A DNA stretch of 10,489 nucleotides from a virus (lineage: Duplodnaviria > Heunggongvirae > Uroviricota > Caudoviricetes). A program made the position numbers and the translations under genes. The stretch is taken from positions 1 through 10,489 of IMG/VR virus record IMGVR_UViG_2703718820_000012; one strand, given 5' to 3'. This document shows, piece by piece, positions 6,808-7,581 of this stretch (within the stretch, counting starts at the first letter, position 1; each line of letters opens with the position of its first letter). Under the pieces are notes generated by a model that made no database searches, was not told the origin of the DNA, and worked only from the letters and a program-made list of their open reading frames with translations.

Positions 6808-7581
6808 ATGGATATTACTGAGTTTCCTTCTGGAGTAATTGAACACCTTGGCTGGTATGTATACCGATTGATTGATCCGAGGGACGGAAGCACCTTCTAT
6901 GTAGGGAAAGGCAAAGGTAACCGCGTATTTGCCCATATGCGCGGTGAAGTGGCAGCGACTGATGATGACGAGTTACTGAGCAACAAGCTAAAGCAAATTA
7001 GAGAAATAAGGTTAGCAGGACTTGAAGTTATCCATGTCATCCATCGACACGGAATGACTGATGAAAAGACGGCGTACGAAGTTGAAGCTGCACTTATTGA
7101 TGCCTACCCTGGGTTAACGAATATCATGAATGGTGCTGGCAGCAATGAATTCGGCGCCGCGCATGTCAAAGAGTTGATAGCAACATATCAACCCGAAACC
7201 ATAATATTTCATCATAAAGCATTAATGATTTCCGTTAACAGAAGTGCAAAGGATTCAGAGCTTTATGATGCGGTTCGATTTAGCTGGCGCATTAATGTCT
7301 CTCGCGCCAGCCAAGCAGAAGTCATTCTTGCTACTGTAAGGGGAATCGTTCGAGGGGTTTTCATTGCTGATAAATGGCTCAAATCAACACGTGAAAATTT
7401 CCCTACGATGAAATACTGGGACGAGGATCCTGACTTTGAGGCAACACAAAGTTCTCGCTATGGTTTTGAAGGTCGAGAAGCCCAACCTGAAATAGCAAAT
7501 CTTTATCTTGGAAAAAAAATACCAGATGAATTAAGAAAAAAAGGAGCTATGTCCCCGGTCCGTTACTCACCTAATTTTTGA
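6808..7581 (+). CDS. Uncharacterised protein with N-terminal GIY-YIG nuclease-like domain
   Basis: [29 protein letters not shown] (aa 15-43) fits GIY...YIG...R. A downstream acidic residue lies in [12 protein letters not shown], with Asn in LTNIMNG. The C-terminal ~130 aa are not recognised. No obvious Shine-Dalgarno precedes the ATG. Confidence 0.6.

Follow-up and report, generated by a model that had tools for sequence, protein, structure and literature searches.

The defence system PD-T4-3 was first identified in strain ECOR68, in a functional selection that screened fragments of the Escherichia coli pangenome (Vassallo et al. 2022, PMC9519451), and was later renamed CMoRE, for Cytosine Modification Restriction Endonuclease, and described in crystal structures (9U75, 9U8D, 9U7U and 9U7Z; Liu et al., Nat Commun 2026, PMC12923530). 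Herein, we analyse a gene at positions 6,808 to 7,581 of a stretch of Caudoviricetes DNA of 10,489 nucleotides (IMG/VR record IMGVR_UViG_2703718820_000012, positions 1 to 10,489; hereafter the window), and assign it to this family.

Expressed from its native promoter, CMoRE reduces the plating of T2, T4 and T6 by ~10^5, and it protects at a multiplicity of infection above 1 without growth arrest in liquid culture, so the defence is direct and non-abortive (PMC12923530). The same liquid-culture result leads us to reject a reading of the gene as an abortive-infection toxin. The purified enzyme needs Mg2+ or Mn2+ and degrades T-even genomic DNA, as well as PCR products containing 5-hydroxymethylcytosine (5hmC) or glucosyl-5-hydroxymethylcytosine (5ghmC). 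DNA with cytosine or 5-methylcytosine (5mC) is not degraded, and the binding preference in electrophoretic mobility shift assays agrees. T4(hmC) remains sensitive and T4(C) escapes, while the host genome is untouched. Cleavage is modification-dependent, without strict sequence specificity; it falls at CN11/N9G, produces 2-nt 3′ overhangs and depends on the presence of two modified sites (all PMC12923530).

Structurally, CMoRE is a dimer-of-dimers tetramer that is disrupted by V92S/L96S. Its nuclease domain carries a third tyrosine, giving a ‘GIYxY-YIG’ motif (Y17, Y19, Y31), and mutation of these tyrosines abolishes function. A 15-residue acidic loop between helices α2 and α3 covers the active site, and a ‘4A’ mutant of four consecutive acidic residues cuts ordinary DNA and is toxic, with loss of self/non-self discrimination. 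The ligand 5hm-dCTP is bound in the C-terminal domain, where Y127 contacts the 5-hydroxymethyl group through its main-chain oxygen (all PMC12923530). Beyond these proteins, a 48%-identical homologue from Capnocytophaga degrades the DNA of T4, though not that of T4-GT7, and cuts Mu DNA as well (PMC12366544). The clinical strain NILS69 becomes sensitive to Tevenvirinae phages when its native gene is deleted (10.1101/2024.12.20.629700).

Assignment of the window gene to CMoRE

The gene is an ATG-to-stop open reading frame of 257 amino acids, and the same 774-nt coding sequence is annotated by RefSeq in other genomes, with the product name ‘LEM-3-like GIY-YIG domain-containing protein’. Its parts are as follows.

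6808..7581, + strand: CMoRE / PD-T4-3 gene
6808..7125, + strand: N-terminal GIY-YIG nuclease region, from Pfam PF22945 and invariant alignment columns
6961..6972, + strand: acidic autoinhibitory lid D52-D53-D54-E55, from sequence comparison
7183..7578, + strand: C-terminal modification-sensing domain (5hmC/5ghmC reader), approximately residues 126–257, including Y127

The PADLOC model for PD-T4-3 (PDLC04031) matches the window protein over residues 1–256 of 256 with an E-value of 1.1e-139, and phrog_5356 is also matched over the full length. A phmmer search of the PDB returned the CMoRE entries, which are deposited under ‘GIY-YIG domain-containing protein’, at E 3e-170 for 9U75/9U8D and E 5e-150 for 9U7U/9U7Z. 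Compared residue by residue, the window protein and the E. coli O157:H7 protein (9U75) show 97.7% identity, with six substitutions in 257 residues; identity to the APEC O1 protein (9U7U) is 84.8%. It shares with both the length, the two-domain architecture and the single-gene organisation. All residues with published mutant phenotypes (Y17, Y19, Y31, V92, L96, R80 and the acidic lid) are kept, as is the ligand-contact residue Y127; the GIYxY-YIG motif, the tetramer-interface residues and Y127 are identical to those of the crystallised protein.

Given the full-length PADLOC match, the 97.7% identity to 9U75, the conservation of functional residues and the independent published work, we assign the window gene to CMoRE with a probability of about 95%, an assignment based on sequence comparison in which the residual doubt concerns solely the expression and activity of this allele. 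The original prediction had proposed, from sequence alone, that one gene encodes a defence or restriction effector whose C-terminal half may read modified bases, and this proposal is borne out by the PADLOC match, the identity to CMoRE and the published experiments. The novelty that it implied is not, as the system has already been published as PD-T4-3/CMoRE and is known in biochemical and structural detail, and the gene itself is nothing new.

Catalytic core, acidic lid and proposed mechanism

Pfam PF22945 (LEM-3-like GIY-YIG) matches residues 28–110 with an E-value of 2.2e-14; its score of 54 bits is well above the cut-off, which is 27. No NCBIfam model matched the window protein. The GIYxY-YIG motif reads G15-W-Y17-V-Y19 and F30-Y31-V-G33 (nt 6850–6912). 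In an alignment of 30 homologues at 53–85% identity, Y17, Y19, Y31, G33, G35, R39, H43, E93 and N105 are invariant, and all 55 family-invariant positions are intact in the window protein. R39 and E93 are, as judged from the alignment, residues of the catalytic type. The GIY-YIG core that had been read from the YVY, YVGKG, R, H, E and N residues is thus supported by both the Pfam match and the invariance of the motif residues.

Two other kinds of nuclease had been left as alternatives by the original prediction. The first is an I-TevI- or Seg-like homing endonuclease, which propagates its gene through cleavage of the cognate empty site. A weak match to phrog_314 (‘homing endonuclease’, E 0.0038) points this way, as does the wording ‘putative homing nuclease’ in some records of jumbo-phage homologues. 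Nevertheless, DNA-binding modules of the homing type, such as NUMOD or IENR1, are missing among the Pfam matches of the protein, which instead matches a validated defence family end to end. The gene lies in no intron or intein and interrupts no conserved gene, but sits in a prophage cargo slot, and the published cleavage is modification-dependent without strict sequence specificity (PMC12923530). The absence of homing modules, the full-length defence-family match and the modification-dependent cleavage effectively refute this explanation, which we regard as vanishingly improbable.

The second alternative, a DNA-repair or structure-specific nuclease of the UvrC, Slx1 or LEM-3 kind serving the prophage or the host, draws on the resemblance named in the Pfam match itself. 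That resemblance is limited to the catalytic domain, and the UvrC C-terminal modules are missing. Moreover, the gene occupies a variable prophage cargo slot, and the published enzyme neither binds nor cuts unmodified DNA and leaves the host genome untouched (PMC12923530). On these grounds we reject the repair reading, to which we give next to no credence.

With the CMoRE assignment retained, the points that weigh against it concern the particular allele. Relative to 9U75, the window protein carries T51A, E55D, I133T, Q169K, N197H and Q226P (window residue first), all conservative or at variable sites and none at a known functional residue. At position 197 (nt 7396–7398), all 30 of a diverse set of homologues, among them the APEC O1 protein and that of the window, have asparagine, and the crystallised O157:H7 protein has histidine; at this residue the window allele is nearer than the structural reference to the consensus of the family. 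A scan for promoter and terminator consensus near the gene gave nothing above shuffled expectation, and expression in the host is assumed. The Capnocytophaga homologue also cut Mu DNA with carbamoylmethyl-adenine (PMC12366544), so the full range of substrates may be wider, both for the family and for this allele.

These points could mean that the CMoRE gene is silent here, or that its product is inactive or has a changed specificity, through the six substitutions or through lack of expression. Two of the substitutions, T51A and E55D, lie in or beside the autoinhibitory lid, and a simple sigma-70 scan of the 364 nt upstream (6444..6807) found no consensus site, so the promoter was not located. 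The APEC O1 orthologue is weak from its own native promoter (PMC12923530), and phage NIC06_P2 escapes the native-level system in NILS69 (10.1101/2024.12.20.629700). Set against this, all functionally tested residues and the 55 invariant positions are intact; the lid reads DDDE in the window protein, in the active APEC O1 protein and in many other homologues, compared with DDDD in O157:H7; and the open reading frame is undamaged within a locus (6600–7700) that is 99.4–99.9% identical across many genomes. We consider a silent or altered allele very unlikely. An AlphaFold 2 model has low confidence at residues 50–53, consistent with a flexible loop at the lid. Of the tetramer interface that function requires, V92, L96 and the β1–β2 region are identical to 9U75.

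The steps of the mechanism were demonstrated by others on the 97.7%-identical protein and are transferred to the window protein by identity. The C-terminal domain would bind DNA containing 5hmC or its glucosylated form, leaving C and 5mC DNA unbound, and a head-to-tail dimer within the tetramer would read two modified cytosines ~21 bp apart (CN11/N9G). The N-terminal GIYxY-YIG nuclease, with Mg2+ or Mn2+, would then cut both strands to leave 2-nt 3′ overhangs, while the acidic loop D52–E55 over the active site would repel ordinary DNA and so protect the host chromosome. The expected outcome is the direct, non-abortive destruction of incoming T-even phage genomes. Put simply, the window allele would be predicted to cleave 5hmC/5ghmC but not C/5mC DNA, and to protect against T-even phages.

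The C-terminal reader and its re-use

The C-terminal ~130 amino acids had been described as unrecognisable, which holds: no Pfam or NCBIfam model covers them, and 20 homologous C-terminal fragments gave no Pfam match at E ≤ 10, including to EVE, ASCH, YTH, SAD_SRA and PUA. An alignment profile of this region searched against the PDB found CMoRE alone, plus a chance match to a ribosomal protein at E 0.25. The CMoRE authors likewise reported no homologue of this domain from searching sequences or structures and called it a ‘distinct fold’ (PMC12923530).

Comparison of a predicted model of the domain with known structures gave a weak but consistent signal. The entries to which it points are PUA-like, comprising the YTH domains of YTHDC1, Mmi1 and CPSF30; the ASCH entries 5GUQ, 2KKU and 3IUW, with YqfB and TRIP4; the EVE proteins PH1033 and Rpa0253; and the N-terminal PUA/YTH-like domains of archaeal McrB (6N0S, 6P0G). 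Several of these entries we take to belong to the EVE, ASCH or PUA-like superfamily. Foldseek returned the same PUA-like families at non-significant scores (E ~0.1, TM-score 0.3–0.38), and this weakness probably explains the negative search of the CMoRE authors. A PUA-, EVE-, ASCH- or SRA-like fold had been suggested as a check on the C-terminal half; structural comparison thus gives it a faint echo, and sequence profiles give none.

On this twilight-zone signal from modelling, we judge it close to an even call, leaning slightly against, that the CMoRE reader is a very divergent PUA-like barrel of the EVE/YTH/ASCH type. If it is, the flipped base may in truth be received by the canonical PUA-like cavity, whose lining comprises the family's invariant aromatics Y153, W160, W190, F198 and Y233, and not by the edge site seen with free 5hm-dCTP.

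VcaM4I-type enzymes are type IV enzymes with PUA-superfamily readers, and PvuRts1I and AbaSI are specific for 5hmC/5ghmC. VcaM4I (EVE-HNH, PDB 6YEX), PvuRts1I and AbaSI differ from CMoRE in using HNH or PD-(D/E)XK nucleases instead of GIY-YIG and in their reversed domain order; their readers have no detectable sequence similarity to that of CMoRE, and Foldseek comparison is non-significant.

We searched 1.84 billion representative proteins with a profile of the C-terminal domain, which matched 1955 proteins at E ≤ 1e-3. Many of these are canonical proteins of ~250 amino acids. In others, the reader is N-terminal in proteins of 600–1300 amino acids without another Pfam match, C-terminal to HSDR_N-type PD-(D/E)XK nuclease domains (P0136, P0133), or at the C-terminal side of a DSP phosphatase (P0191) or of ankyrin repeats (P0127). 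The best structural match in BFVD is a phage PD-(D/E)XK fusion (E 1e-9). One further protein (P0238) places the reader N-terminal to a McrB-type AAA_5 GTPase, with a McrC gene (PF10117) directly downstream on the same metagenome contig (ERZ19489113; both genes at 5001–7639 of locus L007). This arrangement is like that of the McrBC systems with swapped N-terminal readers in T. gammatolerans and S. marinus McrB (6P0G, 6N0S); the window protein, by comparison, has no GTPase and no McrC partner and is a self-contained nuclease. Upstream of the fusion gene, the contig carries split AAA_5/McrB_lid fragments, an ankyrin protein and a pair of AAA_15 ATPase and DUF4276 genes, and the region looks like a defence island.

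The CMoRE paper lists four architectures, all containing GIY-YIG (PMC12923530). The fusions found here extend these four and are distributed as expected of an autonomous, mobile type IV sensor module; given the McrB-type fusion, the CMoRE reader would be an interchangeable type IV sensor. What goes beyond the literature consulted is the weak PUA-like signal, the re-use of the reader in McrBC-type and PD-(D/E)XK enzymes, and the pin-adjacent type IV slot described below.

Prophage context and implications

The gene lies between a restriction–modification pair and an invertase, as the original prediction had placed it.

3719-4933, + strand: EcoRII endonuclease (Pfam EcoRII-N and EcoRII-C, E 1e-61 to 1e-71; PADLOC REase_II)
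4968-6443, − strand: Dcm-type C5 methyltransferase (Pfam DNA_methylase; NCBIfam PRK10458, 927 bits; PADLOC MTase_II)
6444..6807, no strand: divergent intergenic region of 364 nt from the methyltransferase start to the CMoRE start, presumed to hold the native promoter (published CMoRE constructs were active from their native upstream regions, PMC12923530)
7642-8232, − strand: pinE-type serine invertase, convergent with CMoRE (Pfam Resolvase and HTH_7; pinE in all close matches)
8258-8325 and 9733-9800: inverted repeats of 68 nt, 84% complementary, flanking a Pin-invertible segment of ~1.4 kb

EcoRII/Dcm is a complete, independent restriction–modification pair, separate from CMoRE, and the contiguous trio occurs in 244 of 5426 complete E. 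coli genomes. The DNA at 6600–7700, spanning the CMoRE gene and the pinE junction, is found in 1073 of the 5426, and 821 of these matches cover 80% or more of it; nearly all lie on the chromosome and carry the annotation ‘LEM-3-like GIY-YIG domain-containing protein | pinE’. CMoRE therefore stands beside pinE in about 15% to one in six E. coli genomes. In the closest genome, ETEC1717, a P4-like satellite lies downstream of ssrA (int, a SIR2 and ATPase cargo, psu, delta, sid and the alpha primase), and directly after it come EcoRII, the methyltransferase, CMoRE, pinE, tail fibres, a Mu-type baseplate and tail, and an HK97-type head. From this gene order, CMoRE and EcoRII/Dcm are terminal accessory genes of an e14-type prophage, and the window gene adds to the published cases a linkage to EcoRII/Dcm, beside the end of a P4-like satellite, a context not discussed in PMC12923530.

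The degenerate e14 element of K-12 MG1655 has the order stfE′-pinE-mcrA-attR(icdC), so the analogy that had been drawn with mcrA beside pin at the element edge is correct. McrA is a type IV enzyme encoded by a single gene, with DNA containing modified cytosine as its target, and is annotated so in K-12. McrA (EcoKMcrA) occupies the same slot as the window CMoRE, immediately beside pinE at the prophage end, but the two share no homology; McrA combines an HNH nuclease with its own N-terminal reader, and targets 5mC and 5hmC, whereas CMoRE targets 5hmC and 5ghmC only. The likeness is one of position and function, not of family membership.

Other genomes fill the pin-adjacent slot differently. M7638 and STEC1587 have CMoRE with an AraC regulator, SM107 (L003 1033-4666) has an FRG-domain protein, an AAA ATPase and an HNH endonuclease, and BEN2908 (L006 11674-15388) has an APEC-type CMoRE in the opposite orientation, a 629-amino-acid, GmrSD-like DUF262 protein and a pin remnant. 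The neighbours of CMoRE thus vary by genome (EcoRII/Dcm, AraC, DUF262), consistent with a single-component system, and the context fits a defence cargo gene. Taken together, these arrangements suggest that the pin-adjacent end of e14-type prophages is a swap site favouring type IV, modification-dependent enzymes such as McrA, CMoRE and DUF262 proteins. Since CMoRE neither binds nor cuts 5mC DNA, it should be compatible with the adjacent Dcm-type methylase. The two systems would also be complementary, with EcoRII/Dcm acting on unmodified CCWGG, self being marked by 5mC, and CMoRE on hypermodified cytosine.

Several further observations concern the neighbouring DNA. The mechanical open reading frame of the invertase encodes 196 amino acids, compared with 184 (555 nt) for RefSeq pinE; because RefSeq annotates 555 nt, translation probably begins 12 codons further downstream, at the internal Met of MLIGYVRVS. 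The Pin-invertible segment, together with 8223-9425, encodes alternative tail-fibre C-termini and two tail-fibre assembly genes, a standard host-range switch. BEN2908 and DETEC-P793 match the left part of the window (the primase end and an AT-rich island) at 100% identity, and other strains match the right part (EcoRII to tail fibres) at 97–99.8%. At least 80% of the window in contiguous form was found in none of the 5426 complete genomes. The window is a mosaic junction at which a P4-like satellite meets an e14-type prophage, the two standing in tandem at ssrA. Neither Rfam nor ARAGORN detected in it a tmRNA or tRNA remnant that would mark the attachment site of the prophage or of the satellite.

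Within the satellite part, direct repeats of 85% identity lie at 578-778 and 2884-3079, with a third, partial copy at 3211-3332. The repeated unit consists of the last ~110 nt of the P4-like alpha primase reading frame, a hairpin-T terminator and ~60 nt downstream, and the repeats flank a 2.1-kb island (780-2880) of 30–35% GC with two genes.

1186-1872, + strand: HAD-IB phosphatase
1840-2673, − strand: dCTP-deaminase/dUTPase-like protein with a coiled-coil/transmembrane C-terminus, convergent with the phosphatase

The island is present in 5 of 5426 complete E. coli genomes and absent from ETEC1717, and PADLOC recognises neither of its proteins. It could be a satellite cargo of uncharacterised kind, possibly a nucleotide-targeting defence pair. 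Separately, jumbo phages of Serratia, Pectobacterium, Pantoea, Pseudomonas and Klebsiella carry full-length CMoRE homologues at 38–45% identity, annotated as endonuclease or homing nuclease (records H81–H97, among them Serratia phage Moabite 6406-7161 and Pseudomonas phage OBP 158703-159449). These phages may use them against competing phages with modified DNA.

In conclusion, the annotation of this gene is settled, the protein that RefSeq names ‘LEM-3-like GIY-YIG domain-containing protein’ being the 5hmC/5ghmC-specific restriction enzyme CMoRE. With EcoRII/Dcm it forms a two-layer anti-phage island, one layer directed at unmodified and the other at hypermodified DNA, which matters for predicting the host range of T-even phages, for example in phage therapy. 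The side observations on PUA-like ancestry, reader re-use and the pin-adjacent slot are modest leads for the study of type IV restriction and of enzymes for 5hmC mapping.
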